Shown: positions 27,104 to 52,622 of the stretch, piece by piece
Layout: every line of letters begins with the position of its first letter
How positions within the stretch are numbered: position 1 is the first letter of the stretch
NCBI GenBank assembly: GCA_964412585.1
Contig: CAYPPJ010000006.1
Span: 31-64,030 of the forward strand
DNA: 64,000 nt
Reading direction: 5' to 3'
From: an uncultured Candidatus Saccharibacteria bacterium
GTDB lineage: Bacteria > Patescibacteriota > Minisyncoccia > Phycocordibacterales > PALSA-1337
The notes under the pieces: model-generated
Databases searched by the model: none
What the model saw: only the letters and a program-made list of their open reading frames with translations
Told to the model about the DNA's origin: nothing
Program-made: the position numbers and the translations under genes

Positions 27104-27832
27104 ATGAATCCCCAGCACCCCACGGAGCTTCATGTTGGAGCTCCGTACATGGATATTATCCCGACCGCTGATGGAGGGTTTCTCTTCACTTGGTCGGGAC
27201 CGCATCTGTATCAAGAAGTTTTCTTGAGCATGCACACAACGTTCCTGCAATGCGAACGAGGAATGTTCATCAGACTCAGCACACCAGCTTCACAGGGTAC
27301 TATCCGTATTGATCGAACCCTGTCCAAGCTTGTTGCACAATACGGCACCATTGAAATGCTCCACATTACCGTCATTGCAGGAGCAACGGTTGCGAATATA
27401 TCAATGTTCTACCAGAACCTTGATCGTTACCGTGCGCATTTGTTTACCTACGAAATGGCTGGCCTCAAGCAGCGTATGGGTGAACAGGCACGCGTGTTTT
27501 ACGAAACCTACCTTGAACCTCCAAAAGTTAAGACCGCAACAACGGTAACTACTAATGGACACGGTGATACTCGAGCGTCTCTCATGAGGTGCCTTTTGGC
27601 CAACATGGCATTCATCGGGATACTTCTCGGCTGGTCGTTGCGAAACCATCACTTACTAAAGCAGCCCGAACAACGAAAGCGAGCACTCCGCAGAGTTGCT
27701 CGATTACGGCGATCTCGCAAGAAGCCAACATCAGCCGCAAAACTAGGCAAACTGGTGGCTTCTCGACGAAAAGCTCTTCGCAAAAAAACACCTCAAAAAC
27801 GTCGTCCGCTACTCGCTATGCGTACCACATAA
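27104..27832 (+). CDS. Hypothetical protein with a central TM helix and a strongly basic C-terminal tail; high-GC island gene 1.
   Basis: FIGILLGWSL TM; RRVARLRRSRKKP...KRRPLL tail; own terminator. Confidence 0.45.
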   Translation: MNPQHPTELHVGAPYMDIIPTADGGFLFTWSGPHLYQEVFLSMHTTFLQCERGMFIRLSTPASQGTIRIDRTLSKLVAQYGTIEMLHITVIAGATVANISMFYQNLDRYRAHLFTYEMAGLKQRMGEQARVFYETYLEPPKVKTATTVTTNGHGDTRASLMRCLLANMAFIGILLGWSLRNHHLLKQPEQRKRALRRVARLRRSRKKPTSAAKLGKLVASRRKALRKKTPQKRRPLLAMRTT

Positions 27833-27833
27833 G

Positions 27834-27860
27834 CAGACCCTCCACCGAGGGTCTTTTTTA
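27834..27860 (+). terminator. Rho-independent terminator.
   Basis: AGACCCTC-CACC-GAGGGTCT hairpin followed by a T-run. Confidence 0.6.
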
Positions 27861-28008
27861 TACTTGACAGAATACTTTAAATATGCTAGTATATAACAAA
27901 AGTTTAACATTGCTGTTTGAATCTCTATACAAACCGTAGAGAGACAGCAACATTCATATGGCAGTAATGCCACGTTGAGTGCAACCCGCACATTCGGAGC
28001 CACATACC

Positions 28009-28806
28009 ATGAAAAAGATCCAACCGGCCGGAAAGGCCGAAACCAAACCCACTCGCCGCAGTCGCAAAGTAGTTGCAAAGGCATCCTCGACCCGTCGTCC
28101 CTCGAAAGAAAAAACGGAAAAAACGACGCCAGAGTTCCCTGCTTACGACGAAGATGCGTGGAAGTGGATGGCGGAGCAGTCAATCCCTGGAGCTTACTCG
28201 CCGATTATGTACATCGGCGTGGAAGTTTCCCACCAGATCTCGGCAATTCTCGGTCGTCCGATGACGCTCGAGGAAGCCCAGTACTTGGTGAAGATTGATG
28301 GCGACTTCGTTAAATGCGCCTATACGGGAACTGAGTTCCAGCCCGTCGAGTACGTCTTCCGGGTCCCCCCGGGACTCAAGGATAAGCTCGCCGCAGGGGC
28401 AAAGTTGACAGAAGTCGAACTCGTAACTGGGGGCGCCTTCTACTTCAACAAAGGCAAGGGTGAAATGATGCCGTTGAGCGGGTCGGTCTTCGAGTATGAT
28501 CGCCGAGCGCAAGCCTACCGCTGGTGCATGTCCAGTCCGCTGGTCATTGCCGCCAACGAGGCACGAAAGATTACCGGCCACATGAAGTGGGGCGCGCCCT
28601 CACATCAGATCAGCAAAATCATGAATGCACGGCAGGAAAACCGTGAGCGTCATGAAAAGATTGCCGGACTGATGAATGAGGTGTTTGCACCTCGCCGCGA
28701 CAGCCGCTTCGGCATCGGGAAGGAAGCCAAGGGAGAGCTGGGCAAGCTCAAGCTCCGTCATCGTAATGGTCGCCGGCAACGGCACCATGAAGTCACGGAG
28801 GACTAA
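28009..28806 (+). CDS. Hypothetical protein with a basic N-terminal region; high-GC island gene 2.
   Basis: ORF in a GC-rich segment; antisense ORFs are judged GC artefacts. Confidence 0.45.
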   Translation: MKKIQPAGKAETKPTRRSRKVVAKASSTRRPSKEKTEKTTPEFPAYDEDAWKWMAEQSIPGAYSPIMYIGVEVSHQISAILGRPMTLEEAQYLVKIDGDFVKCAYTGTEFQPVEYVFRVPPGLKDKLAAGAKLTEVELVTGGAFYFNKGKGEMMPLSGSVFEYDRRAQAYRWCMSSPLVIAANEARKITGHMKWGAPSHQISKIMNARQENRERHEKIAGLMNEVFAPRRDSRFGIGKEAKGELGKLKLRHRNGRRQRHHEVTED

Positions 28807-29070
28807 ACGCTTCGAAACCTTGTGAATTAAGGTACAAATAGAATAACCCAGCTCCAGATGAATCACCGTCTGGAGCTAAACCTTTTATACTGAAGAACCT
28901 ATATTCTTAGCCCTCCTTTTTATATAAATATTTTATGATAATAGGCTTGACAAACCTATTGAATATGTTATAATTGTAAACGTACCTGAAGACTTGATTG
29001 AAACGACTTTTGAAAACAAACCCTTGCCTGAAGACTTAGAGCTTTAGGCAGCATCCCAGAAAGAAAAAAC

Positions 29071-30171
29071 ATGAAACGCACGAAGCCCGCAGCAACGCTT
29101 CCCCCTCCTGCCGCAACGAGCCAAGCCCCGATCACGGCGGCAGCTCGGAAAGCAAAGGGGAACAGTCCTGCAAAGCCGGCTGCCGGCCACAAGCCGACAA
29201 CTGGTTCGAACCGACCCACTCCCCAGCCCAAAGCTGGAGCGGCCACCACCAAGACTACCGTCAAGGTCAGTACGACCTCGACTACAGGTCCCGGTAAAGG
29301 TGGTGGCAAGAAGCCGGCGGCTCGCAAGACCGCCACAACTTCTACTGCGCGCACGCGTCCGGTCAAACCCGGAACGCCGTCGCCGACCGCACCGAAAACC
29401 CCGACTAACCAGCCCGCCAAACAGCCTGCCAAAAAAGCTCGCAATTGGAGCTGGCTCTGGTGGATCTTGATTGCGGTGGCAGTCGCTGGCCTGGTGTTGT
29501 TTGTCTTGTCGAAGGTGTTCGGCCCCAAAGCCGCGACTCTTCCCAAGGCAGTGGTGGCGCCCGCCATCAGCAACAGCATCCCGGCGATCACGCCCACCAA
29601 CACGGTTGGTGCGGTAAGCAATGCCGTGAGCGCGGCAGCAACAAATATCGCTCCTTCGCTGGCGCCATCCGCGCCGACGAACGTCCCCGCCGCCGTCCCT
29701 ATCGCGATGAAGATCGAAGGGGATGGAAACAACGGCAACACGATGTTGGTGAATTATGGAACAGTCCATGTCACCGAGACCGTGGGCAACGCTTGGGCAA
29801 GCGTTGACGGTGGGCCGACAGCGGCATACCGTGGTCACCCCGCCCCAGTGGCTGCAGCGCCGCAAGGAACCTGGTTCCCTGCTGGCTGCCTCACCTGGAT
29901 GTCCGTCGAGGTCCCGCCCAACGAGCGGAACAAGGACACATACACTGTCGAGGTCAAGGTCGACCAAAAGCAGTGCATCAAAGTCCCTGTACCACCGCCG
30001 GGCTGGAAGATGTTCTACTCCTATCAGGCAAACGGGCCTCTGGAGAAGTTCATTGACGGAAAGCCAGTCGCGGACGGAAACCTCCCGTCAGGTGAAGTTG
30101 GGTTCTTTGGAGGACCCACGTGCACTGAGTGCACCCTGAAGATCAGCTTCAGGCACCTCATCAAAAACTGA
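29071..30171 (+). CDS. Hypothetical membrane-anchored protein with a long disordered Pro/Thr/Lys-rich N-terminal region and a C-terminal Cys-containing extracytoplasmic domain; high-GC island gene 3.
   Basis: WSWLWWILIAVAVAGLVLFVL TM helix; codirectional with neighbours; terminator downstream. Overlapping minus-strand ORFs rejected. Confidence 0.5.
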   Translation: MKRTKPAATLPPPAATSQAPITAAARKAKGNSPAKPAAGHKPTTGSNRPTPQPKAGAATTKTTVKVSTTSTTGPGKGGGKKPAARKTATTSTARTRPVKPGTPSPTAPKTPTNQPAKQPAKKARNWSWLWWILIAVAVAGLVLFVLSKVFGPKAATLPKAVVAPAISNSIPAITPTNTVGAVSNAVSAAATNIAPSLAPSAPTNVPAAVPIAMKIEGDGNNGNTMLVNYGTVHVTETVGNAWASVDGGPTAAYRGHPAPVAAAPQGTWFPAGCLTWMSVEVPPNERNKDTYTVEVKVDQKQCIKVPVPPPGWKMFYSYQANGPLEKFIDGKPVADGNLPSGEVGFFGGPTCTECTLKISFRHLIKN

Positions 30172-30187
30172 TCCTTGTTCGATTCAA

Positions 30188-30225
30188 AGCGCGCGGAATG
30201 GCAACATTCCGCGCGTCTTCTTTTA
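30188..30225 (+). terminator. Rho-independent terminator.
   Basis: GCGCGCGGAATG-GCAA-CATTCCGCGCG hairpin followed by a T-run. Confidence 0.6.
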
Positions 30226-30402
30226 TATACAAATATACGGCTCAACTGGAGGCTATTTTAGTGAGTAAATCATTGACATTTGGTACATAATGTGATACAA
30301 TTGATACATATAACACTGGTGCGTGTGCGGCACTAATGAAACTTGAAAAGGAATTCAAACCAACGTCATGAGCGCACAACATGACCTTATGGTACGAAAA
30401 TT

Positions 30403-31398
30403 ATGAAAAAAGAAGCTGAAGAAAAGCTGGTGGCAACACCAGTTCCCTATCGTCGTACATTGGCGAGGAAGTTGTTTGTCTTGACCGGTAACCTGGTCAT
30501 GATCGCATACTTCATCGTCTTGTCCGCGTGGGGACTCGAGTACATCACACCGTTTGCTTTTGGAGCATGCGTCTTGCTGATGTGCTACATCTCTGTCATC
30601 CTGATGTTTTTCGTCAAAGGATACATGATGTTCATCGCCCCGGTGCGCGAATTATGCGCCGGAGTTCTAACCAATCTGTTCTTTGGCCGTAAGGCACCAA
30701 AGACAGATGTTGAAAGCCTGAGTCTCGATTCGATACCATCGATCGAGGAAGTAGGCTGGGGAGTATGGAACTGGAAGTTCCCTTGGCAGTCTGTAACGTA
30801 CGTTGACCTCAAACGCCACATCCCTGTCGGCGGAACAGAAGGAATTGGGTACACGAAAGACCAAGTGGAAACACCGTTCATGTGGAAAGGCTCCGTAAGG
30901 GTTCCACAGGGATACTGTGGGACACTAGTGCGTATTGGGGACGAGGCCGCCATTAGAATGGCTGAAGCATTGACTGACGCCGCAGTTGCGGAAATGATCA
31001 ACAAGGTCAAGTACAAGCAGCTTCCCTCCAAGCAGACTCATCTTGCATACAGCCTCCGGGAATACTACGAGGGGGATGGCAACATGAGCGCACGAGAAGC
31101 GGGGATCGGTCTCGCTATCGAGAAACTGGTACTCAAGTACGCCAAGCGTAGCAAGCGCGTACAAGATGCCGCTGAACTTGAAGTTCAGGCTGATAGCGTG
31201 AACGCATCAGCGGAGCGACTCATGCTCCTAGACCAAGATACACCTCCTGAACGGCGGATGACTGGCAAAGAAGCAGTCGATCGCGTCCTCACCCTCGCAG
31301 GCCAAGGAAACTTGCGCGTTTATGAGGGCCTCAAAGGTGCCGAACCTCTGATCGAGCTGGAGGATGGTCCAAGAAACAAGAAAGGTGGAAAGGATTGA
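30403..31398 (+). CDS. Hypothetical membrane protein (two N-terminal TM helices plus a cytoplasmic domain); high-GC island gene 4.
   Basis: LFVLTGNLVMIAYFIVLSAWG and FAFGACVLLMCYISVILMFFV hydrophobic segments. Confidence 0.45.
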   Translation: MKKEAEEKLVATPVPYRRTLARKLFVLTGNLVMIAYFIVLSAWGLEYITPFAFGACVLLMCYISVILMFFVKGYMMFIAPVRELCAGVLTNLFFGRKAPKTDVESLSLDSIPSIEEVGWGVWNWKFPWQSVTYVDLKRHIPVGGTEGIGYTKDQVETPFMWKGSVRVPQGYCGTLVRIGDEAAIRMAEALTDAAVAEMINKVKYKQLPSKQTHLAYSLREYYEGDGNMSAREAGIGLAIEKLVLKYAKRSKRVQDAAELEVQADSVNASAERLMLLDQDTPPERRMTGKEAVDRVLTLAGQGNLRVYEGLKGAEPLIELEDGPRNKKGGKD

Positions 31399-31400
31399 TT

Positions 31401-31910
31401 ATGGCCGACGAGAAAAAAAATGGATTCATTATTGATGCCGCCATCGGCGGTATCAACCTCGAACCAGATTCGAAGCTGAAGTGGTATGTTCGCGCAATTG
31501 CTGGCAAACCACAACAGATCGGTCTCGGTGTACTGTTCCTGCTCATTGTCATCACGGTGTGGTACTTCCGCACGTTCGGCCTAGCCGGACTACTGAAGAA
31601 CTACGACCGTTGGCACACGGGCAACAACGAGCCCTTGTCTTCACGGCAGGCATCCGTACCTACCATTACCATAACCAAGGGTGTGTGGAGTGAAAAAGTT
31701 GACTCATCGGGCCGTTCACTCGATGAACTTAACATCACTCCGCCGGTACGGCGGGCAGTCATGGTGAACGGAGATCCGAACAGGATCTATCACCTCACAG
31801 CACAAAATGACACGACCAACCTCGGCAATGACGTAAAGTCGTGGCAGTGGATGATTGAGCCGGATGAATCCGTCTCTGTCGCCACGGTCGAATACCGACT
31901 ATCACGATAG
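31401..31910 (+). CDS. Hypothetical single-TM protein; high-GC island gene 5.
   Basis: IGLGVLFLLIVITVWYF TM; stop of the previous gene overlaps the start region; terminator downstream. Confidence 0.4.
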   Translation: MADEKKNGFIIDAAIGGINLEPDSKLKWYVRAIAGKPQQIGLGVLFLLIVITVWYFRTFGLAGLLKNYDRWHTGNNEPLSSRQASVPTITITKGVWSEKVDSSGRSLDELNITPPVRRAVMVNGDPNRIYHLTAQNDTTNLGNDVKSWQWMIEPDESVSVATVEYRLSR

Positions 31911-31925
31911 GACGTGACCAAGCAA

Positions 31926-31960
31926 CTGGCCTGGAAGGTAACACTTCCAGGCCGGCTTTT
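31926..31960 (+). terminator. Rho-independent terminator.
   Basis: GCCTGGAAG-GTAACA-CTTCCAGGC hairpin followed by a T7 run. Confidence 0.6.
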
Positions 31961-31999: not shown

Positions 32000-32287
32000 C
32001 TATACACTATTGACCGTATTCGCAACCAGATTGATGATGCCCCATGCAGAGAGCATAATAAACATACCGATAAGACCTCCCCACATGCTCTTCTTGCCAC
32101 GATCATGCGCTTCCCCACCCGGCTCACCCCAAATCACTTGGAATACACCGTAGACAAAAACTACGACTGCAACTGCGAACATAAGTGTGATAACCGGATT
32201 GACAATATTATCAATTATTGGATTGACTACCTTGCCAACTGCATTAGCATCAATCTCGGCATGCGCCACCTTGAGAAACGGTAACAT
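32000..32287 (-). CDS. T4SS-pilin-like (TrbC/VirB2-like architecture) small membrane protein, paralog 1 of 5.
   Basis: Signal-like N-terminus, two hydrophobic helices separated by a short charged loop (GEPGGEAHDRGKKSMWG), 95 aa. Confidence 0.45.
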   Translation of the reverse strand: MLPFLKVAHAEIDANAVGKVVNPIIDNIVNPVITLMFAVAVVVFVYGVFQVIWGEPGGEAHDRGKKSMWGGLIGMFIMLSAWGIINLVANTVNSV

Positions 32288-32298
32288 AATCTATGGGA

Positions 32299-32661
32299 TT
32301 ATGGAGTAATCTGTCGAGGATAGTTGATCTGTGGGAACTGGCTCGTCGGAGCATTCGTATCAGTACGGAATGTGTTGGTCAGGATTCGTACAAGGCCCCA
32401 GATAGAAAGGATAACGAAAAGACCGACAATGCCCCACAAAATACCCTTGCCAATCTCTTTGCGTGCATCGGCATTTTCGCCAGCCATGATGTATCGAACT
32501 GCCAAAATGATGATGTAGATGACAGCGACCGCAATGAGAATCTCAATGACGACGTTGCCGATGTTGGTGAGCTTATAGGTCAGTGAATTGACATCCGTAA
32601 TAGCCTGAGCCGAAGCGATAGCTGGTGTCAATACTGCGAGAGTTGCTAATATTTTCTTCAT
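32299..32661 (-). CDS. T4SS-pilin-like small membrane protein, paralog 2 of 5.
   Basis: MKKILATLAVLTPAIASAQA signal, then two TM helices with loop AGENADARKEIGKG. Confidence 0.45.
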   Translation of the reverse strand: MKKILATLAVLTPAIASAQAITDVNSLTYKLTNIGNVVIEILIAVAVIYIIILAVRYIMAGENADARKEIGKGILWGIVGLFVILSIWGLVRILTNTFRTDTNAPTSQFPQINYPRQITP

Positions 32662-32748
32662 GATAATTGTTTAACTATGATTAATGTTGCTGATAATTAT
32701 ACCTCGTATCTTAGAACATGGAAAGTTGACCTGTGGACTAATACCATT

Positions 32749-33348
32749 CTACGGCTCCTGGCCTCGTGGATTGTTAAGCTCGCCATCTAGTTGAGTTGCA
32801 GAAGTCGGGTTATACTCATGACCATATGGATCGAAAGATCCCGTCGGAGAAACGTTCGAGCCACTTCCATTCCCAGGAGTTGTCGGTCCACTTCCGGCCC
32901 CATTGAATGTTGGTGTAGTTGGACCACTTCCTGCTCCATTGAATGAAGGAGTAGTTGGGCCACTTCCGGAACCACCAGCACTTCCTCCAGGGAAGATGTT
33001 CTTAAATGATGTCCATGACGCTGGCTGGTTTGATTCGTTCTGAAGACCAAAGGTGTTTTGAAGAATATTGACCAATCCCCAGAAAGACAAAACAACAAAA
33101 AAACCTATAAGGCTATACATTACGTATTGACCAGCATTCTTTCTATCTTCGTTCGGCTTGATGAAATATTGGATGATATACCATACGAATATAACAACAG
33201 CCAATCCAATGAGAAGAACGAGGAACTGGTTGAGGTAGCTGATAATGAGGTCAATAATGTAAGCCAGATTCTTTCCTGCGGCAAAGGTGATGGCAGGTGT
33301 CAGAAGTGCTATGGCCGTTACGATATGGATCGAAAGATTTTTTTTCAT
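32749..33348 (-). CDS. T4SS-pilin-like small membrane protein with C-terminal GAGSGPTTP tandem repeats, paralog 3 of 5.
   Basis: Signal peptide, two TM helices with loop KPNEDRKNAGQ, repeats NGAGSGPTTP(S/T)F x3. Confidence 0.45.
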   Translation of the reverse strand: MKKNLSIHIVTAIALLTPAITFAAGKNLAYIIDLIISYLNQFLVLLIGLAVVIFVWYIIQYFIKPNEDRKNAGQYVMYSLIGFFVVLSFWGLVNILQNTFGLQNESNQPASWTSFKNIFPGGSAGGSGSGPTTPSFNGAGSGPTTPTFNGAGSGPTTPGNGSGSNVSPTGSFDPYGHEYNPTSATQLDGELNNPRGQEP

Positions 33349-33368
33349 ATTAATGTATAAAATAATAA

Positions 33369-33788
33369 TTACTTGGTGAGTGCTCCTCGAACAGTATTGA
33401 TAGTGTTCGGGTCGACACCAGACGAAGCCAGTGTATTTATAACCACCTCAACAATCACTCGAGCACCAATAACGACCGCCACGCCGATAACAATCCAAAA
33501 CAACCACTCTTTGAGCTCCTTCATCTTCGATGCGTCTCCTCGGGCCAAGATGAACTGCAAACCAACCCAGACCAAGAGTAGTACGGCAATGATGATAACC
33601 ACGTAGCTAAATATCTCAACGAAATTCTGGACGAGGCCTGAAATAGAATCTACCTTGAGGGGGTTTGAGAGAGTAAAAGTACGAGGCGTATCTGATGACG
33701 TTGCCCCAAGCAACAGTGATGGTATGCCCATAAATCCGACTATGGCGGCAGCGACCTTTGTGTACTTGGTTTGTAGAAAATAATTCAT
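33369..33788 (-). CDS. T4SS-pilin-like small membrane protein, paralog 4 of 5.
   Basis: Signal-like N-terminus, two TM helices with loop ARGDASKMKELKEW. Confidence 0.45.
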   Translation of the reverse strand: MNYFLQTKYTKVAAAIVGFMGIPSLLLGATSSDTPRTFTLSNPLKVDSISGLVQNFVEIFSYVVIIIAVLLLVWVGLQFILARGDASKMKELKEWLFWIVIGVAVVIGARVIVEVVINTLASSGVDPNTINTVRGALTK

Positions 33789-33800
33789 GAAAAGTTCTAT

Positions 33801-34337
33801 TTATGGACTACCTAGCAATGACTTGAACGCAGGATTACTGCTCAACCAACTCAACACTTGATATACGATAAACCACGCCGACAGCATAATTATAAACCCA
33901 ATGAACACTTTGGGAAAGATGGACTTTGCCTTACTAATGTTCTTTTCCTTGCCACTTATCATCAAACCTCCTGCATAACTGAACATTAGAATAGCTACCA
34001 ATACACCCACAACCATCATGATATTGATGAGGTGCTGGATGAGGAGCATCACCGCATTGAAGTCACAAGGCACATAGGAGCGACCGCCAAGATCGGCTTC
34101 TGCCTTTTTGATCAGATCAGCGTTCGGTAGAGTTGGCCCATCGCACACTGCTATTTTGAACGCTGAACTACTTGGATTTGTCGAAGGCTCAGTGAGAGGG
34201 GTCTGCATCGTCTGCGTAGGAACTGCAGTAGGAGGTGGGGGTGGCGGATTTGCAGGCGCAGGAGTCTGAGCATAACTTATATAGACTGGAGCTATAGTAA
34301 GTGCGGACAGAACTATAAATTGAGCAAATGTTTTCAT
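33801..34337 (-). CDS. T4SS-pilin-like small membrane protein with a proline-rich linker, paralog 5 of 5.
   Basis: Signal peptide, PPPPPP linker, two TM helices with loop SGKEKNISKAKS. Confidence 0.45.
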   Translation of the reverse strand: MKTFAQFIVLSALTIAPVYISYAQTPAPANPPPPPPTAVPTQTMQTPLTEPSTNPSSSAFKIAVCDGPTLPNADLIKKAEADLGGRSYVPCDFNAVMLLIQHLINIMMVVGVLVAILMFSYAGGLMISGKEKNISKAKSIFPKVFIGFIIMLSAWFIVYQVLSWLSSNPAFKSLLGSP

Positions 34338-34344
34338 GGAGTAA

Positions 34345-35644
34345 TTACTGCAATGCTTGTCTCAATATAATATCATACTCGTCACCGGCATCTTGGATGG
34401 CTTGGTACCTACTCTTTGCTCCACTCGTAATATCCGCGATCATATTGCCAAAAATATCGCGCGACTTTGTAGGATCGGCATCAAGCCAGGTCTTTGCGGT
34501 CAATGCGGCTTCATTGAATATGGTTATATAAGGATCACTTGAACCTTGAGCGATGACATCACGGCGTACCGTTGGAAGATACATGGTCTTGTTGAGTTCA
34601 GAGAGTATTGAAGGATCGGTCAAATATGAAATGACCTGGAAGACGGCCGTGGCGTTAGGAGAACTTCGTACAATAGAAAATGCATTCATGCGAGCATACC
34701 CTGCCTTTATACCTCCGGTGCGAATCTGCGGCAGCGGTGCTACATCAAAATTGAGGTTGGGATTTTTTGTTTGGATATCCTTGAGTTCGGAGGCAAAACC
34801 AAAGTACGTCGCCAAGCTTCCAGCCAGAAAAGCTGACTTGGAGGCAGGCATGCCTCTGTTCCACGAATAATCTGGGCTTGCTGGATCTACAAACTGGGTA
34901 AAGAAATCGACCGCAGGCGTAGGGTCAGCACCTCGAGATGTTTTGAGCGTGCTCTGGATAAATCCGTCTTTATCAGTGCGCGTAATCGGATTGCCCGCTT
35001 GGAGAATAAGAGAAGCCAAGATCTCTCGTGCATTGCTGACATTGGTAAAATCACCGAGTGCAATCGCCGACTTGCGGATATTTCCATTTGTATCCTTTGT
35101 AGTGAGTTTTGCGTTAAGTCCGGTAAATTCGTCCCAATATTTCGGGTACGCTGCAATACCGGCAGCATTGAACATGTCACGATTCCAATACATAACCAGA
35201 GGATCGACAGTAAATGGTATAGCGATGATTCCCGCTGAATTGAGATAAATCGTCCCTTCCTCGATGAAACTGTCAATAAAGGTGCGCTGTGGTAGTGCGG
35301 TAAATGGGATAGCTGCCAGCTTGTCGTAATGTGGTAGCAACATGTCCGCAGATATGAGGACACCATCCGGACCCTGCCCACGAGCAAGCGCTGCGACAAA
35401 CTCCTGCGAAAATGTTGCGGCCGACTTTTGAACATATCTCACGGTAATAGGTTGCGAGAGTACCGTATTGACCTTGGCTACATAATTGTTGAATGTATCT
35501 GCAGGGAATGTACCCCAGAATGTAACTGCGGGAATCGTCGTGCTCGCCGAATTTCCCTTGTACATAGCAAAGGCCGCCACTCCAGCAACAAGAAATATTA
35601 CGAAGAGTACGAGCGTGATAACTTGGAATTTGGTAATTTTCATA
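34345..35644 (-). CDS. ABC transporter substrate-binding protein (family 1, sugar-type), N-terminally anchored.
   Basis: N-terminal TM anchor then a periplasmic-binding-protein-like two-lobe sequence pattern; size about 430 aa. Confidence 0.55.
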
Positions 35645-36163
35645 TCAGTTTCGTGTAAATACAAGACCATAATGATGATCCCCTGCACCAAACGAATCTT
35701 CCAACTTAAAACCATTTTTTTCGAACAGCATCTGGGCCTTCATGGCGGGAACCAATTGTTTTGGACTTAATGCACTGACTTCACTCCAGTCGATGACCAT
35801 GACCTTACCGCCCAGTTTGAGAATACGCTTTATCTCCAAACAAAAATCATCAGGTTTTTCAATCTGAAATAACACGTTAGAAGCGATGACACGGTCAGCA
35901 ATAGCCTCGCGGAGCTTGGTGCCACCAATCTTTTCTGCATTGCCCCAGACAACTTCAATATTTCGCACACCCTGTGTCGAAGCATTTGAGCGTAGGCGTT
36001 CGAGGAGATTTTTCTGCACATCTACTGCATACACACGCCCACTGGAGCCGACTTTTTTGGCAGCCTCAATACTGTAGAATCCGGAGCCTGCGCCCAAATC
36101 GACTACCTTCTGCCCGTCAGTAAGGCCAAATTTTGCAAGATTAGCTGCAGGATCAGAGAACAT
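35645..36163 (-). CDS. Class I SAM-dependent methyltransferase.
   Basis: VVDLGAGSGFYS motif I and a downstream acidic motif. Confidence 0.7.
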   Translation of the reverse strand: MFSDPAANLAKFGLTDGQKVVDLGAGSGFYSIEAAKKVGSSGRVYAVDVQKNLLERLRSNASTQGVRNIEVVWGNAEKIGGTKLREAIADRVIASNVLFQIEKPDDFCLEIKRILKLGGKVMVIDWSEVSALSPKQLVPAMKAQMLFEKNGFKLEDSFGAGDHHYGLVFTRN

Positions 36164-36408
36164 GGGTTAATTATACCCTATTGACGAGTGGCCAAGAAAT
36201 GGGGTTTGGGGACAAATAGCTACAATTACTTTGTTAGAAGCGAAGATGGGATCGGTGTAAGGGATTCGAAGCTTACAGCTTCGGTACAGGTTTCGTATTT
36301 TTTCGGAGCACAGCTCCTCAAAAATATACTCAACCTCTTCGAATCCCTCACGCAAAGCACGCAGGTGCTTTGCCACTCTCCGTCATTCGCTCGTTTCACT
36401 CGCTCAGT

Positions 36409-36594: not shown

Positions 36595-37488
36595 CTACCA
36601 CCTACCGCTGGCTCCGCCGCCGCCCGAACTCCCCCCTCCAAATCCACCGAAACCTCCGCCGCCGCCACCGTACCCACCAAATCCCCCACCGAATCCACCA
36701 AAAAGACCTGGGCCTCGACCGCCAGATGACCTTTGAGAAAATATAAAATCGAACAACAGTCCAAACACAGCAAGAGCGATAATTGAAATAATGCCCGTGT
36801 ACATAAAACCGGCAAACAATCCGATAACAACACCAGCAATCGCGCCAACAAGACCGCCAAGCCACCACGAGGCAGTGCGGCGGAACTCCCACAACAGAAA
36901 ATTGATCCCAACAAAAAATAGAATCTGTACCGGACCTTTGAATAGCAGCCCCTCAATACCTGTAAGTTCAGACGGACTATGCTGCGTCGCCTGGCCAACA
37001 ACATCATCAGGTGCGCCGAGAATCGGTACAAGCGAGTCGACTGCGTCTGACAATCCTTGAGCATAATTACCCTGTGCAAAAGCTGGGGCTATATCGTTTC
37101 GAATAATTTCGTCTGCCTGCAAATCGGTAAGCGCTGATTCGGCACCATACCCTGTTTCTATCTTAACTTCACGCTCCTTGAGTGCAACGAGAAATAATAT
37201 GCCCGTATCATACTGGGCATCACCTATCTTCCATTCTTCAAAAAGTTTGAGAGCGTAATGTTCGATAGTATCTCCTGCGAGTGTGGGTATGATCGCGACT
37301 GTTACCTCATAGCCCGGGCCATCGCGATATATGGCATCAAGTTTCGCTTCAATATCTTTTTTTTCTTCTCCTCGTAGAACGCCAGCAAAATCATTTATAA
37401 AGCCAGTAGGACGCCCAGGATTGGTGTACGCAAAAACACTGACAGGAATAAACAGTCCGATACACATCATGATCAAGGTCTTTTTCAT
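36595..37488 (-). CDS. TPM-domain (YgcG-like) membrane protein with a glycine-rich C-terminus.
   Basis: TPM phosphatase-like domain, TM helix, GGFGGGFGGYGGGGGG tail; downstream of lemA as typical. Confidence 0.6.
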   Translation of the reverse strand: MKKTLIMMCIGLFIPVSVFAYTNPGRPTGFINDFAGVLRGEEKKDIEAKLDAIYRDGPGYEVTVAIIPTLAGDTIEHYALKLFEEWKIGDAQYDTGILFLVALKEREVKIETGYGAESALTDLQADEIIRNDIAPAFAQGNYAQGLSDAVDSLVPILGAPDDVVGQATQHSPSELTGIEGLLFKGPVQILFFVGINFLLWEFRRTASWWLGGLVGAIAGVVIGLFAGFMYTGIISIIALAVFGLLFDFIFSQRSSGGRGPGLFGGFGGGFGGYGGGGGGFGGFGGGSSGGGGASGRW

Positions 37489-37516
37489 CGAGATAGATGC
37501 ACGAGCTCTGCACAGA

Positions 37517-38074
37517 TTACTGGAGATTGACCTTAGGTGCAGTTGCCGCGCCAGCCGCTGCTTCAAAATAGCTTATCGGATCAAATCCGAATAGTGACGC
37601 AATCACCGAACGTGGGAATTGCTTGATACCAAGTTGGTACGCTTTGACCGCCTCATTGAAACGACCGCGTTCAGCATTGATACGATTTTCTGTGCCTTCA
37701 AGTTGAACCATCAGATCGCGTACAGTCGCTGAAGACGTGAGGGTTGGATAATTTTCCATAACTACCAAGAGCCTACTCAATGAAGACTCGAGCTCCCCTG
37801 CTGCTACAGCCTTTTCAGAAACCGTCTGCGCACCTGAGTATCGAGTACGAGCATCTGCAATAGCGGTAAAAATAGTCTGCTCTTGTTTCATTGATCCCTT
37901 GACCGACTCGACCAGATTTGGGATAAGGTCGAGACGTCGCTGATAGTCAGCTTCAACCTGATGCCATTGCGCAGTAGTTGATTCGCGGAGCGTGACCAAC
38001 CCATTGTATGATGACCAGCCATAGAGAACTACAAGAATGATAATAACCAAGATAACAATAAATGTTTTTTTCAT
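37517..38074 (-). CDS. lemA: LemA family protein.
   Basis: N-terminal TM plus YNGLV..R........W..V...YQRR.DLIPNLV LemA signature. Confidence 0.75.
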   Translation of the reverse strand: MKKTFIVILVIIILVVLYGWSSYNGLVTLRESTTAQWHQVEADYQRRLDLIPNLVESVKGSMKQEQTIFTAIADARTRYSGAQTVSEKAVAAGELESSLSRLLVVMENYPTLTSSATVRDLMVQLEGTENRINAERGRFNEAVKAYQLGIKQFPRSVIASLFGFDPISYFEAAAGAATAPKVNLQ

Positions 38075-38133
38075 ATTGATGTAATACGGTACAGATTATT
38101 CGAAATAATAATAGTGCTCACAGGTAATCTCTA

Positions 38134-39921
38134 TTACCACCCGCCTCCACCGCCTCCGCCACCGCCGCCACCTGAAAATCCGCCACCGCCGCTGCCACCC
38201 ATACCGCCACCCGGCATTGATGTCATGCTCGTGCTCGCCATACTATTGAAACCAGAAAGATTGCTGTAGAGCAACATGGAGTTAAAGTGTCCACCCACTG
38301 GATATCCTTCATACCATGATGGAGGATTGACATATATGTCTGCAAATTCTTTTGACCATGCACTGGCAACGCCAAGCACCATGGCATACGGCAACAATTT
38401 CTCAAAAATTTCAGGTCTCTTTTCAGGTGCATTATGAAAATTGAGTCGATCTTTCTCCGCAATCTGTAGATAATCCTTGAGGCCCAGAATGTATTCTTTT
38501 GCCGCCACACCTTTGATTGTTTTGGCTGGCATGAGACTGTGAAATACGGCCCCAATAATTATCGACAAAATAACCGATGCAATTATGGGAACAGGGCTTA
38601 TGCTCACGGCGACAGCACTAAACACTGAGTCAATAAGGTGATATACAATAATCCCTCCCCACAAAAGTATAAAAAACGACGAAGAGATCGCCTTCGCAGC
38701 CCCAGAGCTTTCGATCTTCAAGTTACTATAGTATTGCTTATCGAGAAGTGTCTGAAGAGCACTCTTCGTGATAATCGGGACTCGGGTGTAGAACGAATTC
38801 TTCAAATCCGACAGTTTTATTTTTTCTCCAGGTCCGGCATTGAGTGCAAACACATGATTGAGGAGTGTCTTATCAAATTCGTTTGGCAAGTCATCATATC
38901 TCCTGAGTAATTCGAGCTCATAGTCGGTATTTTTTATAAACCCAAGAATCTTGTTATCGACGTATTTGATCTTGAGATACCCCTTGGTGGCAAGATAAAT
39001 AATTTCAGAAGAAATGTCAGCCGAGGTAACGCCCTGATTGACGATGCCAGCGACTTCCATCGGCGTCAAACCATCTGGCACGTCATACTGTGGCACAATC
39101 ACGCCCGTACCCTTGGGATCGCGTCCTTTCTTGTACCACTTCCTAAACATCACAATAAACGTAATCAGCGGTAGCAAAATAATGATAAGCCACGTGATGT
39201 ATTTTCCGATGTTGTCAAAAAAATCATCAAGGGCTGAATACGGCACTACAATACCCTTTTGAAACCCGACAGCTGCAGTCAGTCCTTCTCCCGAACGCAG
39301 TTCATGAGAGACCCCGAATGCAAGATCACCTTGTTTTGAGAAATCAACTTCGCATACCCCTTTGCTTCCCTGGGGACCGGAGTAGCATGAAGATTGTTGA
39401 GCAACCGCACCAAGAGGCAACTCAAATTTGACCTGAGCTTTGTATATCGGGATTTCCCAATCGTTGCCAGTCACATTCCAATAAATCTCATCGATATCTT
39501 TGAGTTGTGCAACGGCACTGGTGGCCTTGTACTTGATAACGTAAGTCCGCTGACCTATAAAGGTAACATTCGCATCTCCGATCCTGATACGTACATTTCC
39601 ATTTGCGGACTGACGTACCCAGGTCACAGGATTTCCCTGCATATCAGTTACCGAAATATCCGTAATCGACATAGAGCGATTTTCGGACGAAACTGGCCTG
39701 ATATCGCGATAGATACCATGATGCGCAGACGGACCAGTGTCATAATCAATAACCTCGCGAACAGAAACTGAATTGTCGGTATTGACTGAAACTATCGACT
39801 GAAAGAGTGTAACCGCTTGCTCATGTGTCGCGAGTGACGGAATTGTCTGCGCATGCGCAACGCCGGCCATGGCCCCAAAGAAGGCCAAGCCGGCAAGAAT
39901 AAGTACGCGTATGCGCTTCAT
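38134..39921 (-). CDS. DUF2207-like membrane protein with a glycine-rich C-terminus; partner of the second lemA.
   Basis: Signal peptide, large extracytoplasmic domain, TM helices, GGGMGGSGGGGFSGGGGGGGGGGGW tail. Confidence 0.5.
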   Translation of the reverse strand: MKRIRVLILAGLAFFGAMAGVAHAQTIPSLATHEQAVTLFQSIVSVNTDNSVSVREVIDYDTGPSAHHGIYRDIRPVSSENRSMSITDISVTDMQGNPVTWVRQSANGNVRIRIGDANVTFIGQRTYVIKYKATSAVAQLKDIDEIYWNVTGNDWEIPIYKAQVKFELPLGAVAQQSSCYSGPQGSKGVCEVDFSKQGDLAFGVSHELRSGEGLTAAVGFQKGIVVPYSALDDFFDNIGKYITWLIIILLPLITFIVMFRKWYKKGRDPKGTGVIVPQYDVPDGLTPMEVAGIVNQGVTSADISSEIIYLATKGYLKIKYVDNKILGFIKNTDYELELLRRYDDLPNEFDKTLLNHVFALNAGPGEKIKLSDLKNSFYTRVPIITKSALQTLLDKQYYSNLKIESSGAAKAISSSFFILLWGGIIVYHLIDSVFSAVAVSISPVPIIASVILSIIIGAVFHSLMPAKTIKGVAAKEYILGLKDYLQIAEKDRLNFHNAPEKRPEIFEKLLPYAMVLGVASAWSKEFADIYVNPPSWYEGYPVGGHFNSMLLYSNLSGFNSMASTSMTSMPGGGMGGSGGGGFSGGGGGGGGGGGW

Positions 39922-39928
39922 GTCTATA

Positions 39929-40480
39929 CTAGAATTTAACCTCAACAGGATTCTTTGCCGCAGCATCAGCGGCATCAAGCTGGAAGAATTCCATAGCAGT
40001 AAAGTGGAATGTTGAAGCAATGATGTTACCAGGAAACACCTGAATAGCGGTGTTGAGTTCACGAACATTGCCGTTGTAATAGCGGCGAGATGCCTGGATC
40101 TTGTCCTCAGTCTCAGTCAATTCGGCCTGAAGGGAGAGGAAATTTTGATTTGCCTTGAGCTCTGGGTACGCCTCCGCGATTGCAAAGACGGATTTGAGGG
40201 CGCTTGCCAAGCCGAGTTCTGCTGCACCTTTTTGGACAGGACCCTGTGCGCCCATAGCGGCCGCACGCGCCTTGGTCACATTTTCGAATGCCTGGCTTTC
40301 ATGCGTTGCATATCCTTTGACGGTCGCGACGAGATTGGGAATGAGGTCATATCGACGCTTGAGTTGGACATCAATATCTGACCATGCCTCCTTGGTACGG
40401 TTTACCATCGACACCAAACGGTTGTACGAGACGATGGCCCACAAGACGATCACTATGACTACTATGAGTAGTATTGTCAT
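39929..40480 (-). CDS. lemA: LemA family protein, second copy.
   Basis: YNRLV...W..IDVQLKRRYDLIPNLV signature. Confidence 0.75.
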   Translation of the reverse strand: MTILLIVVIVIVLWAIVSYNRLVSMVNRTKEAWSDIDVQLKRRYDLIPNLVATVKGYATHESQAFENVTKARAAAMGAQGPVQKGAAELGLASALKSVFAIAEAYPELKANQNFLSLQAELTETEDKIQASRRYYNGNVRELNTAIQVFPGNIIASTFHFTAMEFFQLDAADAAAKNPVEVKF

Positions 40481-40525
40481 TGAGGAGATGAGTTAGAAGT
40501 GTTGATAATGCGAACGATGCGGAGC

Positions 40526-41212
40526 TTATTTCTTTGGAGCCTTTGTCTCATCAATACCTTGCGCTGTCGTGACGTATCCGAACGACTTGACCATATCGGT
40601 AAATGCTGTGTCTGAGCTTGCGACAATAGCCTTGTTGTTGTTTTGAGCCTGAGTAATGTTTGAACCAGTAAGACCCTTGCTTGCAGGATCAAGTGTGATA
40701 GATGAGAACGCGAACATATAGCAAATCGTGTCTTTCTGGAGCGAGTACATATGATTGAAGTATCCACGACCCTGAACAGTGTTCGACATAGTAATAGTGC
40801 TGAAATTTAGAGCACCGACTTTGACGGTATCACGGTTCTTGACTGTGGTGACTGGTGGAAACGCACACTTGCCTGAAGTCACTACGATATCAGCCTGGAG
40901 CTTGGCGACAGTTGAAACCTGAGCCTTGTCGATCGGCATGATAAATGAGACACCAGCTTCTGTCTCTGACTTTTCCCACGTGGTCGGATATTTGACTGAG
41001 AATCCAAGTTCTGAATTTTGATATTCAGATGACTGGCTAGAGACCTTGGTAGTTTCACTCACTGGCGCAGACGGAGTAGCACCACTGGCGACAGGTGGAG
41101 TGGCACTCGTGCCTGTATCTGTGGCAGTACCTTTGTCTGATGAACCACCAAAAATAACAATCAGAATAATAGCGATGATAACGAGTATAATGACGACAAT
41201 TCCTTTTTTCAT
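40526..41212 (-). CDS. Hypothetical N-terminally anchored protein with a Thr/Ser-rich linker.
   Basis: N-terminal TM IVVIILVIIAIILIVIF. Confidence 0.4.
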   Translation of the reverse strand: MKKGIVVIILVIIAIILIVIFGGSSDKGTATDTGTSATPPVASGATPSAPVSETTKVSSQSSEYQNSELGFSVKYPTTWEKSETEAGVSFIMPIDKAQVSTVAKLQADIVVTSGKCAFPPVTTVKNRDTVKVGALNFSTITMSNTVQGRGYFNHMYSLQKDTICYMFAFSSITLDPASKGLTGSNITQAQNNNKAIVASSDTAFTDMVKSFGYVTTAQGIDETKAPKK

Positions 41213-44550: not shown

Positions 44551-46305
44551 GTGAACGACGAACAACTTCCACACGAACTCCGCCTGAAGCGCGGTTCACA
44601 TATCCTGAATTATATTAGACAGTTCTCTGCGACAGAGAAAGTTGTTTTCGGTATATTTGTTATTGCAGCCGCTGTAACCATGATCATCATGGCCGCACGT
44701 CTCAATTCCACTTTTAGTGTCGAAATACCTGCATACGGCGGCAGTCTCAACGAAGGAGTCATCGGACTTCCCCGTAGTATCAACCCGGTACTTGCGCTCG
44801 GCGATGTTGACCGCGATCTTTCTGCACTCATATATTCTGGTCTTACTAGATACAGTAAAGGAAAAATTGTCGGGGATCTCGCTCAATCATTCAAAGTATC
44901 TGCGGATGGATTGACCTACACATTCAAGCTCAAGCCTGATCTTACATTCCATGATGGAACACCCCTCACTACCGAAGACGTCGCATTCACTATCCAAAAA
45001 ATTCAAGACCCGGCTGTCAAAAGCCCGCGTCGTATCGACTGGACTGATGTGACGGTCACGATCATCTCGCCGACAGAGATCAGCTTTGTCTTGAAACAAC
45101 CCTATAGCCCATTCCTGACCAACACGACCATCGGTATTCTACCGAAGCATATCTGGGGCTTGGTGAGCGATGAACAATTCATTTTCAGTCAATTCAACAT
45201 TGAACCGATCGGGTCAGGCCCATACCGCCTCTCATCAATTTCGCGTGATAACGGTGGCATACCAGTAAGCTACACCCTCACATCTTCGCGAGAGTACTAC
45301 GGTAAGATGCCGTACATCAAGACGATTATATTCAACTTTTTTCCTGAGGAGAATGCAGGGCTCAACGCACTCGACCAAGGATCGATCGATAGTTTGAGTG
45401 GCATTTCACCAGAAGCTGGCCATCGACTCGCGACAGATTCAGCGCAGCCATATACCGTACTTTCCTCACCACTCCCTCGTACATTCAGCGTTTTTTTGAA
45501 TCAAGATCAAAATGCGCTCTTTGCAGACAAAACGATTCGACAAGCATTGGACATGTCTATCGATCGAACTACTCTTATTGAAAATGTCCTCAAGGGCTAT
45601 GGCGAACCTCTGACTGGCCCAGCACCATTTATTTCTTCATCAAGCACGGTAGTTCGCAGCGCTCCTTCCGCATCCACATCGATACAGCTGGCGCAAGCGT
45701 TATTGGAAAAAAATGGCTGGAAGAGGATCTCTGGTGTATATACCAAGAAGAACACCAAAACAGGGACCACCACCTTGTCTTTCGATATATACACTGTCGA
45801 TTCACCTGACCTCAAGCAGGCTGCTGAACTCGTCAAAAATGCGTGGACCGCACTTGGTGCTCACGTAACAGTCAAAGTCTATGAAGGAACCGACTTTTAT
45901 CAAAATATAATCCGCACAAGAAAATATGACGCACTCTTGTTCGGCGAAGTCATCGGCAAAGACCGTGACTTGTATGCATTCTGGCATTCATCACAACGCA
46001 AATCGCCCGGTCTCAATGTTGCCATGTATACAAATGCCAAAGTTGATAAACTACTCGACGATATCCGCACAACCAATGACGAAGATGCCCGCGCGCTCAA
46101 GTACGTCCAATTCGACCAACTGATCCGCGCAGACATCCCCGCCATTTTCTTGTATACCTCCGATTTTATTTACGCAGTACCTAAGTCACTTAAAAATATC
46201 CAACTCTCTTCCCTCTCATCATCAGCTGACCGATGGAGTGACGTCACCCAATGGTATATGGAGACAGAGAATGTATGGAACATTAACTTATTCACAAGCA
46301 GATAA
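44551..46305 (+). CDS. ABC transporter substrate-binding protein, family 5 (peptide/nickel type), N-terminally anchored.
   Basis: N-terminal TM, about 580 aa; sequence pattern typical of SBP_bac_5. Confidence 0.6.
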   Translation: MNDEQLPHELRLKRGSHILNYIRQFSATEKVVFGIFVIAAAVTMIIMAARLNSTFSVEIPAYGGSLNEGVIGLPRSINPVLALGDVDRDLSALIYSGLTRYSKGKIVGDLAQSFKVSADGLTYTFKLKPDLTFHDGTPLTTEDVAFTIQKIQDPAVKSPRRIDWTDVTVTIISPTEISFVLKQPYSPFLTNTTIGILPKHIWGLVSDEQFIFSQFNIEPIGSGPYRLSSISRDNGGIPVSYTLTSSREYYGKMPYIKTIIFNFFPEENAGLNALDQGSIDSLSGISPEAGHRLATDSAQPYTVLSSPLPRTFSVFLNQDQNALFADKTIRQALDMSIDRTTLIENVLKGYGEPLTGPAPFISSSSTVVRSAPSASTSIQLAQALLEKNGWKRISGVYTKKNTKTGTTTLSFDIYTVDSPDLKQAAELVKNAWTALGAHVTVKVYEGTDFYQNIIRTRKYDALLFGEVIGKDRDLYAFWHSSQRKSPGLNVAMYTNAKVDKLLDDIRTTNDEDARALKYVQFDQLIRADIPAIFLYTSDFIYAVPKSLKNIQLSSLSSSADRWSDVTQWYMETENVWNINLFTSR

Positions 46306-48668: not shown

Positions 48669-50021
48669 CTACAACCCCTGCAACGGATCAATCATAGTTC
48701 GTTGGATGTTGTCTGCTTTTGCAATCACACTATTACCATACGAAGCAATGAGAGACGAGGCGCTACAGGATTTGCCAGAATAGTACTTGCAAGCTGCGTT
48801 TCGCTCTGATGAATAGGTGCCACCTGAAGCTCCTAGGTCTCCCAAATAGATTGATGAGGCCATGAACGCATGCGATGGATTCCATGGATCAGGAATACCT
48901 GAGATGCCTAGATTGGCCGCAATACGATCCTCAAATAGTACCCACGTTGAAGCAATAAACTGCGCAGGACCCATCGCACCACCCCAGCCGACTGATTGAG
49001 GACATGAAACGACCTGCTTCATCGGATCTCCTCCGAGTTTTTTCACAATATCAATAAATGGTTCCACATCACGCCCCGGCTTCATAACTTTTGCAACATA
49101 AGAACCAGTTTTTTTACTGATACCTTCACCTGTTTGTGTATTGGTCAGGTAGCATGCGCCGACATTTGCTCCCAACGCGGACTCTTGGGTCAGAATGGCT
49201 AATACGAAGGCTGGTCTAACGCCTGTCTTTGCAGCAGCTGCCTGCGCATACTTGAGCGCATCGCCAAATGGAATTGGATTGGAGTCACGCAACTGGAACA
49301 ATGCGGCACGTATCTGGGAGGCACGTGCGCGCTTCTCAGCAAGAACAGCTGAATACGCTTTTTCATTGCCTTTGCTTGCGGCTAAGAGACGCTGTTTCTC
49401 AGCCTCATTTGCCTTAATACTCTTTTCTTCTTGCTGGATAATATAACGAGCATCTGTCTCTGCGTTTTTGCGTTTATCAAGCGTACTTTTTTCTGCCTCA
49501 GTCTCTGACTTATCCGATCGGATCCGTTCAAAGGTAGTCTTGAGACCCTCTTGCACTGATTGGAACGAATCAAGATCTGTAAAAAATCCAGTCAGCGTCG
49601 TCTGAGACAAAAGCATTTCAGGCAGTGTATATGTCCCCGCCTCATTGGTCTTGCGCATAATCTGTGCCAAGGTATCTCGTCCACGATCAATACGATCTTC
49701 CAGTTTCCCAATATATACCTCTTTATTTTTTATATCTTTTCCGAGGCTTTCAATAAGCAAATTTTTTGCCTTGATGTTGAGCTGAGCAACTTTGATTTTT
49801 GCCGACAACACGGAAATATCTTTTTGCAATGACGAACTCTGTCCCTGGGCTGAAGCAAGGTCTTTTTCAGCCTGTTTCTGGTCGGCTTCAACCTGTGCCA
49901 ATTCACGTTCTAGTTGTGCTTTTTGTTCAGGAGTAAGAACCTGGGCATGTAGAGGTGCAAAAAATGCCATAAGTGACAATATTAAAACCGCCAGGATGTA
50001 GATTCGTTGCCTGATGTTCAT
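48669..50021 (-). CDS. Secreted coiled-coil protein with a C-terminal lysozyme-like (lytic transglycosylase-type) peptidoglycan hydrolase domain.
   Basis: Signal/TM N-terminus, long heptad-rich region, C-terminal AFVLAILTQESALG motif with a catalytic-Glu context. Confidence 0.5.
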   Translation of the reverse strand: MNIRQRIYILAVLILSLMAFFAPLHAQVLTPEQKAQLERELAQVEADQKQAEKDLASAQGQSSSLQKDISVLSAKIKVAQLNIKAKNLLIESLGKDIKNKEVYIGKLEDRIDRGRDTLAQIMRKTNEAGTYTLPEMLLSQTTLTGFFTDLDSFQSVQEGLKTTFERIRSDKSETEAEKSTLDKRKNAETDARYIIQQEEKSIKANEAEKQRLLAASKGNEKAYSAVLAEKRARASQIRAALFQLRDSNPIPFGDALKYAQAAAAKTGVRPAFVLAILTQESALGANVGACYLTNTQTGEGISKKTGSYVAKVMKPGRDVEPFIDIVKKLGGDPMKQVVSCPQSVGWGGAMGPAQFIASTWVLFEDRIAANLGISGIPDPWNPSHAFMASSIYLGDLGASGGTYSSERNAACKYYSGKSCSASSLIASYGNSVIAKADNIQRTMIDPLQGL

Positions 50022-50086
50022 GTATGGTAAGTATAGCAAAAAGCGCACCGACGTGCGCCTTTTGTGATGACGTATGATGTGGTGAA

Positions 50087-51735: not shown

Positions 51736-51818
51736 TGAGTATTAAAATCAAACGCACGTAAACTTATCGCTCATATACAAGAGTAAATGCTGCGTTGTGG
51801 CGAATTTTCATCACAGCA

Positions 51819-52619: not shown

Positions 52620-52622
52620 TTT

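Follow-up and report, generated by a model that had tools for sequence, protein, structure and literature searches.

The window analysed here, 64 kb of contig CAYPPJ010000006.1, contains at positions 32000–34337 five consecutive open reading frames (ORFs) on the minus strand, which encode VirB2-like pilin paralogues and which we name g1 to g5 in transcription order. The products are of 178 amino acids (aa) for g1 (33801–34337), 139 aa for g2 (33369–33788), 199 aa for g3 (32749–33348), 120 aa for g4 (32299–32661) and 95 aa for g5 (32000–32287), and the g1/g2, g2/g3, g3/g4 and g4/g5 gaps are 12, 20, 87 and 11 nucleotides (nt) respectively. A preliminary description of the region had listed five neighbouring same-strand genes of these lengths, and the ORF coordinates match it. 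The same five genes are called independently on six metagenome contigs, with the start of g1 as the sole difference; the JGI annotation places this start at an internal methionine to give a 135-aa product, but we take the 178-aa start to be correct because the signal peptide that it includes is conserved in the orthologue of the closest relative (locus L011).

Kyte-Doolittle hydropathy plots of each of the five products show a pair of strongly hydrophobic segments with a short loop between them that contains Lys or Arg residues, and an AlphaFold2 model of g2 is a helix-loop-helix hairpin with helices at residues 49–81 and 86–122 and a predicted local distance difference test score (pLDDT) above 90. 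The two hydrophobic helices with a short charged loop reported earlier are thus recovered by hydropathy in all five, and by structure prediction in g2. The signal-like N-terminus attributed to every member is present in g1 to g4, where sequence inspection and hydropathy reveal a hydrophobic Sec-type leader ending in a small-x-small cleavage motif, but not in g5, whose leader has 10 residues (MLPFLKVAHA; 9–12 in its orthologues) with a conserved A-x-A ending. Two members carry the divergent appendages that had been noted. In g1 a Pro-rich linker with PPPPPP and a conserved Cys motif (CDGP...VPCDF) stand, in this order, between the signal peptide and the hairpin, and g3 ends in a repetitive Gly/Ser/Pro/Thr-rich tail with GAGSGPTTP repeats. 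This tail includes a 36-bp tandem repeat of 2.6 copies at 32875–32969 on the minus strand (Tandem Repeats Finder score 127), which encodes FNGAGSGPTTP repeats.

All five products exceed the gathering score of the Pfam T4SS_pilin (type IV secretion system, T4SS) model PF18895, which is 26.6 bits, with 32.4, 43.2, 34.0, 38.6 and 28.2 bits for g1 to g5 respectively. For the TrbC/VirB2 model PF04956, with a gathering score of 27.9 bits, g2 alone passes at 37.1 bits; g4 reaches 18.0 bits, below the cut-off, and the Pfam search gave no match to this model for g1, g3 or g5. Sub-threshold NCBIfam matches of 20–29 bits extend over the whole hairpin of g2 to g5, to NF045849 (Mbov_0395) and NF045890 (pLS20_p028). 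Position-specific hidden Markov models match the other array paralogues with E-values of 1e-5 to 1e-17 and detect no further family member among the ORFs of the window, and a comparison of the g2 and g4 families with hhalign gives 95.8% probability (E = 8e-9). The 141 homologues of g2, nearly all annotated with both PF18895 and PF04956, come from Taylorbacteria, Paceibacterota or Patescibacteria. We found no Pfam match to the N-methylation motif of type IV pilus (T4P) pilins (PF07963) in any of the five genes, and no match to g2 in a tblastn search of 72,556 plasmids. Membership of g1 to g5 in the T4SS_pilin family is secure on these profile scores, and the profile search that had been proposed as a check of their VirB2/TrbC-type and candidate phyla radiation (CPR)-type T4SS_pilin identity supports it, through PF18895 for all five and PF04956 for g2.

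The preliminary description had kept as a fallback that the array is an unrelated family with the same topology, that is, small two-transmembrane (two-TM) proteins such as holin-like or generic membrane peptides that are pilin-like in topology only. Several weak, sub-threshold matches to DctQ, MscL, holin and CrgA are in keeping with this, as is a structure search that yields only generic helical hairpins, but the curated PF18895 threshold is exceeded by all five products and that of PF04956 by g2, homologues are named TrbC/VirB2 family or pilin in their source databases, and, searched against 1.84 billion proteins, a five-paralogue profile matches 27,114 cluster representatives (E ≤ 1e-3). 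We regard such a topological resemblance as exceedingly improbable, and the family assignment already refutes it.

The likeness to the VirB2/TrbC/TraA pilins of diderm bacteria (R388 TrwL, the Agrobacterium T-pilin and the F-pilin) lies in the signal peptide, the hydrophobic two-helix hairpin with a short basic loop, and the passing PF04956 score of g2. Diderm conjugative systems normally have one major pilin gene beside virB3 and virB4, whereas the window array is in a monoderm, is not beside virB3 or virB4 and has extra N- or C-terminal appendages; moreover, four of the five paralogues fail PF04956, and the g2 family profile shows no significant hhalign match to TrwL (E = 0.45). The weak whole-hairpin similarity of g2 to g5 to NF045849, from Mycoplasma integrative and conjugative elements, and to NF045890 is to proteins of wall-less or monoderm hosts, although the curated cut-offs (40 and 150 bits) are not reached and each of those proteins is encoded by one gene in the T4SS cluster of a mobile element.

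Positional orthology across related genomes

The DNA of the window is chromosomal and comes from a Candidatus Taylorbacteria-like member of the class Paceibacteria. It encodes ParB, MiaA, MgsA, alanine racemase, ClpB, SMC, RNase III, NusB and GroEL, together with RNase J, L25, a class II aldolase, TGT and five tRNAs; its nearest relatives are metagenome-assembled genomes (MAGs) named Candidatus Taylorbacteria, Paceibacterota or Patescibacteria, and its GroEL is 94% identical to that of the Taylorbacteria MAG nzgw447. With two peptide patterns from g4 we recovered loci from 20 GTDB species, and in 16 of them a methyltransferase gene, a solute-binding protein (SBP) gene and g1 to g5 follow one another in intact order. 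Two of the other four are cut by contig ends, one has the SBP gene and g1 merged in one ORF, and one has split ORFs. The seven-gene order is also present in the loci L007, L009, L010, L011, L039 and L040, the last with six pilin genes, and the methyltransferase and SBP genes precede the array in this order in every related locus that extends far enough upstream. At locus L030 (OY969557.1, 95871–116200), which is on a complete 876-kb chromosome with the array at about 105 kb, both the SBP gene and g1 are broken into two ORFs, reflecting either gene decay or assembly indel errors.

Each pilin gene of a relative has its best match in the window gene at the equal position, with a score about 2–11 times that of any other paralogue, and orthologues are 49–94% identical, compared with 21–39% (mean about 28%) for paralogues. 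Each paralogue therefore has one-to-one positional orthologues across more than 20 species. Conservation is concentrated in the hairpin cores and in short flanking motifs, such as AQAITDVNSLTYKLTN and NTFRTDT in g4 and the Cys motif of g1. Lengths across species range from 152 to 423 aa for g1, 139 to 277 aa for g2 and 122 to 242 aa for g3, and are near-fixed for g4 (117–120 aa) and g5 (82–100 aa); the variation is confined to the low-complexity appendages and is greatest in the N-terminal region of g1. In more distant relatives g4 is the most conserved paralogue (68–91% identity). Relative to L011, nonsynonymous divergence (dN) is far below synonymous divergence (dS) where dS can be estimated, although dS is saturated for g1 and g2 and exceeds 1 in g3 and g5, so that the comparison of paralogue divergence and dN/dS suggested in the preliminary description gives a qualitative result only. 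The six metagenome contigs are 100% identical over the 4.3-kb operon. The array is a set of five anciently diverged paralogues, neither a recent nor a variable expansion.

Arrays of this general kind have been described previously. In a survey of 3,035 Patescibacteria genomes based on PF04956 and PF18895, Quinonero-Coronel et al. (2025, PMC12102498) detected 441 VirB2 arrays of 2–11 genes; these come from 383 assemblies, and identity within them averages 25%. An array is defined there as at least two VirB2-like genes in tandem or one gene apart with low within-array identity, and its variability is suggested to aid adaptation to different hosts. The window array, as five contiguous genes with paralogues 21–39% identical, falls within this definition, and it resembles the published arrays in Pfam family, phylum, same-strand tandem arrangement, degree of identity (about 28% versus 25%), chromosomal location and the lack of a relaxase nearby. 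It differs in not being near virB4 and in its class, as the published arrays are most abundant in Microgenomatia and Saccharimonadia and this one is in Paceibacteria. It is also a fixed five-member set preceded by SBP and methyltransferase genes, of which we found no description in the sections of the survey used here; a fixed set argues against the suggestion of versatility towards host strains.

VirB2 paralogues in Bartonella and Anaplasma have been proposed to provide antigenic or host-range variation, and expansions of that type arise by lineage-specific duplication and turnover, whereas the window array is a fixed orthologous set. The preliminary description had allowed that it could be a diversified repertoire. 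If g1 to g5 were interchangeable pilin variants for antigenic variation or host-strain adaptation, the low within-array identity, near the published mean, and the length-variable, low-complexity appendages of g1 to g3 would be accounted for, and this is the reading offered for Patescibacteria arrays in the survey (PMC12102498). However, the gene order is fixed with one-to-one positional orthology, the hairpin cores show conservation, dN being far lower than dS, the lengths of g4 and g5 are nearly constant, there are no extra copies in the window, and the operon is identical in the six contigs; furthermore, all predicted pilins of the array in Southlakia epibionticum are reported to be essential (PMC10633639), which argues against redundancy. 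A diversified repertoire is contradicted in this lineage because cores, gene order and positional orthology are all conserved, and we conclude that interchangeable variants are largely refuted here and very unlikely.

The linked solute-binding protein and multi-hairpin relatives

The gene 7 nt upstream of g1 (34345–35643, minus strand) encodes a solute-binding protein of the SBP_bac_1 type, 432 aa from its conserved start (PF01547, 65 bits; PF13416, 60.6 bits), with an N-terminal TM helix as anchor. Its nearest solved structures are sugar-binding proteins, namely 4r9f MBP1 (E = 5e-15) and MalE-like proteins. One nt from the SBP start is the gene for a class I S-adenosylmethionine methyltransferase of 172 aa (35645–36163, minus strand; Methyltransf_31/11/25), which is the first gene of the conserved block. 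We found no ATP-binding cassette (ABC) permease or ATPase for the SBP in the window. A second solute-binding protein, SBP_bac_5, is encoded at 44551–46305 on the plus strand, likewise without an ABC permease or ATPase in the window.

Many of the best matches to the five-paralogue profile are single polypeptides in which 2–15 hairpin modules follow one signal peptide (P0127, P0128, P0129, P0133, P0136 and P0141); Pfam recognises eight PF18895 domains in P0127 (820 aa) and 14 in P0136 (1775 aa). Downstream of the fusion gene at the P0127 locus (L041, 9925–16481) are another two pilin genes, of which one carries a PKD domain, as well as a gene for a 718-aa PKD-repeat protein. The locus is near rpmF-nusB-rnc, as is the window array, and there is no VirB4 within 10 kb of it. 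Fusions of this type were not found in the cited sections of the literature on Patescibacteria arrays. They argue that different hairpins adjoin in one assembly, because joining two-TM modules whose two ends are outside leaves the topology unchanged.

Proposed assembly and its alternatives

Patescibacteria depend on host bacteria, and of their systems of this kind the T4SS with its unusual pilin arrays is alone in having been shown to be essential for growth: in Southlakia epibionticum ML1 an essential array of six pilin genes is inside the T4SS cluster SEML1_0006–0019 (Wang et al. 2023, PMC10633639; reviewed in PMC12857230), and a 2025 review speculates on a pilus-like conduit (PMC12857230). 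As in the window, several sequence-divergent but structurally similar VirB2-like pilins are encoded side by side in a monoderm epibiont, and the need for all of them fits non-redundant subunits. The Southlakia array, however, has six genes, belongs to another class of Patescibacteria, has been studied experimentally and is within a virB4/virB6 cluster, whereas the five genes here are known from sequence and no T4SS gene is recognisable within 30 kb of them.

We propose that a T4SS assembles g1 to g5, as five non-redundant subunits, into one heteromeric pilus-like filament or conduit in which g1 to g3 carry exposed spacers or adhesive parts, and we put the probability of this at roughly 0.6; non-redundancy is favoured because of the conservation pattern, and the dependence on a T4SS is suggested by the family and by the Southlakia array. 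According to this proposal Sec would insert g1 to g4 into the membrane, their signal peptides being removed, and all five hairpins, including that of g5, would expose both ends to the outside, with the basic loop cytoplasmic. A monoderm-type Patescibacteria T4SS (VirB4, VirB3 and VirB6), encoded elsewhere on the chromosome, would then extract the hairpins from the membrane, and these would assemble at the cell surface as a single heteromeric filament or conduit. A structural role would fall to g4 and g5, which are small and invariant, and g1 to g3 would present surface-exposed spacers or adhesive parts, such that the five would not be interchangeable antigenic or host-range variants. The co-transcribed SBP may act at the same surface in the binding or capture of host-derived glycans.

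Several observations weigh against this proposal. VirB4, VirD4, VirB6 and other T4SS genes are not recognised among the substantial ORFs of the window, which extends the statement in the preliminary description that none is adjacent to the array; no T4SS genes are present in the approximately 8 kb past the left window end, where PBP5, SerRS, DprA and TopA are encoded; and about 25 related loci have no recognised VirB4, VirD4 or VirB6 at up to 10 kb from the array. Nine of the 23 Taylorbacteria assemblies listed in the survey lack VirB4 (PMC12102498), which could reflect incomplete MAGs or true absence. The tie to experimentally characterised pilins runs through Pfam profiles only: in addition to the result with TrwL, the g2 family profile finds no solved pilin among PDB sequences, and Foldseek with the hairpin returns only generic helical hairpins, a search that is uninformative for a bare hairpin. 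No pilus has been observed in any Patescibacterium (PMC12857230). The leader of g5 seems, by its length, too short for a Sec signal peptide, and the roles suggested for the SBP and the methyltransferase come from synteny alone.

As for the distance from T4SS genes, VirB4 is present in 2,417 of the 3,035 surveyed Patescibacteria assemblies, and a pilin gene is near virB4 in only 1,135 of the 1,948 assemblies with both VirB4 and VirB2-like genes, so that pilin genes unlinked to virB4 are common (PMC12102498). In Paceibacteria virB4 tends to be near dnaA and dnaN, and the assembly GCA_001821055.1, which has the same array (locus L015), is listed as VirB4-positive (PMC12102498, Table S1).

It is conceivable, though on balance unlikely, that the array has no VirB4 part at all and forms a T4SS-independent membrane or surface complex with the co-transcribed SBP, such as a module for host-sugar uptake or a receptor. 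The SBP gene is 7 nt from g1 and invariably linked to the array, its product has no ABC permease or ATPase encoded in the window, and the array never adjoins virB4 in this lineage, neither in the window nor in the 25 or so related loci; fusions of 8–14 hairpins resemble polytopic membrane proteins more than classical pilus subunits, and the Taylorbacteria assemblies listed without VirB4 (PMC12102498) would also be consistent with such a complex. Set against this, the definition of the family is that of T4SS pilins, the score of g2 is above the TrbC/VirB2 cut-off, and the SBP linkage may be mere conserved synteny, as arrays in other classes lack the SBP and L041 has PKD-repeat proteins instead. 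We also know of no transporter class that pairs two-TM hairpins with a family 1 solute-binding protein. In the sole experimentally tested species, moreover, the array is essential and inside a T4SS cluster (PMC10633639, PMC12857230).

A further and quite doubtful possibility combines elements of both: the five proteins would be obligate stoichiometric partners of one heteromeric filament or channel, built with the SBP as a conduit for nutrient capture and possibly without a canonical VirB4, and the fused proteins of 2–15 hairpins would be covalently linked versions of it. The structures of the F-pilus and T-pilus have a five-start VirB2-type geometry, and one possibility is that each paralogue might fill one strand of such a pilus.

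The family, the tandem arrays and their likely link to a T4SS are already in the literature, and the gain made here is incremental. The fixed orthologous five-gene set, its linkage to an SBP and the natural hairpin fusions are new, and a modest addition. With a set that, in a large Paceibacteria lineage, is fixed, unlinked to virB4 and always linked to the SBP gene, the question shifts from a variable repertoire to a multi-subunit structure, to which the fused multi-hairpin relatives likewise point, and the array supplies concrete candidates for modelling, proteomics and cryo-electron tomography.

Regulatory signals and other genes in the window

A TATAAT hexamer read from the sequence at 36170–36175 on the minus strand, 7 nt upstream of the methyltransferase ATG, is a possible operon promoter, although the evidence is weak, and a consensus scan finds a promoter-like TTTCCA-17-TATAAT at 32696–32724 on the same strand, in the 87-nt gap between g3 and g4, which is a possible internal promoter for g4 and g5. 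Such sites are not above chance in the region (12 found versus 9.5 expected), and neither are those of a terminator scan. Between g5 and the convergent plus-strand gene is a 12-bp GC-rich hairpin (31926–31955) with a T-run on the plus strand, which is the end of both convergent transcription units.

The convergent unit ending at this hairpin is a plus-strand cluster of five genes (27104–31910) with products of 242, 275, 366, 331 and 171 aa and no significant family match, of which the last two are partly syntenic in relatives. We checked these two (30403–31398 and 31395–31910) as possible hidden T4SS parts and found no Pfam or NCBIfam match; both are only patchily conserved beside the array, and we assign neither. 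A word-based search with the 331-aa product of 30403–31398 returned three proteins only, its own sequence and two relatives, and its AlphaFold2 model (pLDDT 40) is unusable. Gene callers conflict at 28968–30171, where JGI has a 257-aa minus-strand gene and Logan a 366-aa plus-strand gene, and the local GC content is 56%. A plus-strand Pro/Ala/Thr-rich membrane protein is favoured, because relatives have at the equivalent place a gene on the same strand of variable length (about 250–520 aa; 378 aa in L007), with homology to the 366-aa ORF only presumed.

A second pilin array, unrelated to g1 to g5, is located at 50779–53498 on the minus strand and consists of three tandem T4P pilin genes (318, 266 and 291 aa), each with an N-terminal methylation motif (PF07963) and a Laminin_G_3 or concanavalin-like domain. 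Beside it (48669–50048, minus strand) is a gene for a 459-aa protein, coiled-coil in its N-terminal part, with an SLT_2 score of 23.4 bits against a cut-off of 24.3; this putative lytic transglycosylase might open the cell wall for a surface machine. At 59906–63940 (minus strand) a 1344-aa protein has a Peptidase_S74 intramolecular-chaperone domain, as in phage tail-spike and endosialidase proteins, which is unusual for a chromosomal gene of such a small genome. Possible defence or toxin-antitoxin genes, as judged by family, are an OLD-family ATPase/TOPRIM nuclease gene beside MgsA (5052–6644, minus strand) and a MazF/PemK toxin gene (8550–9008, plus strand). Between GroEL and the pilin operon, at 36595–41212 on the minus strand, are genes for LemA, DUF2207, LemA and TPM-domain membrane proteins, which are partly conserved in relatives.

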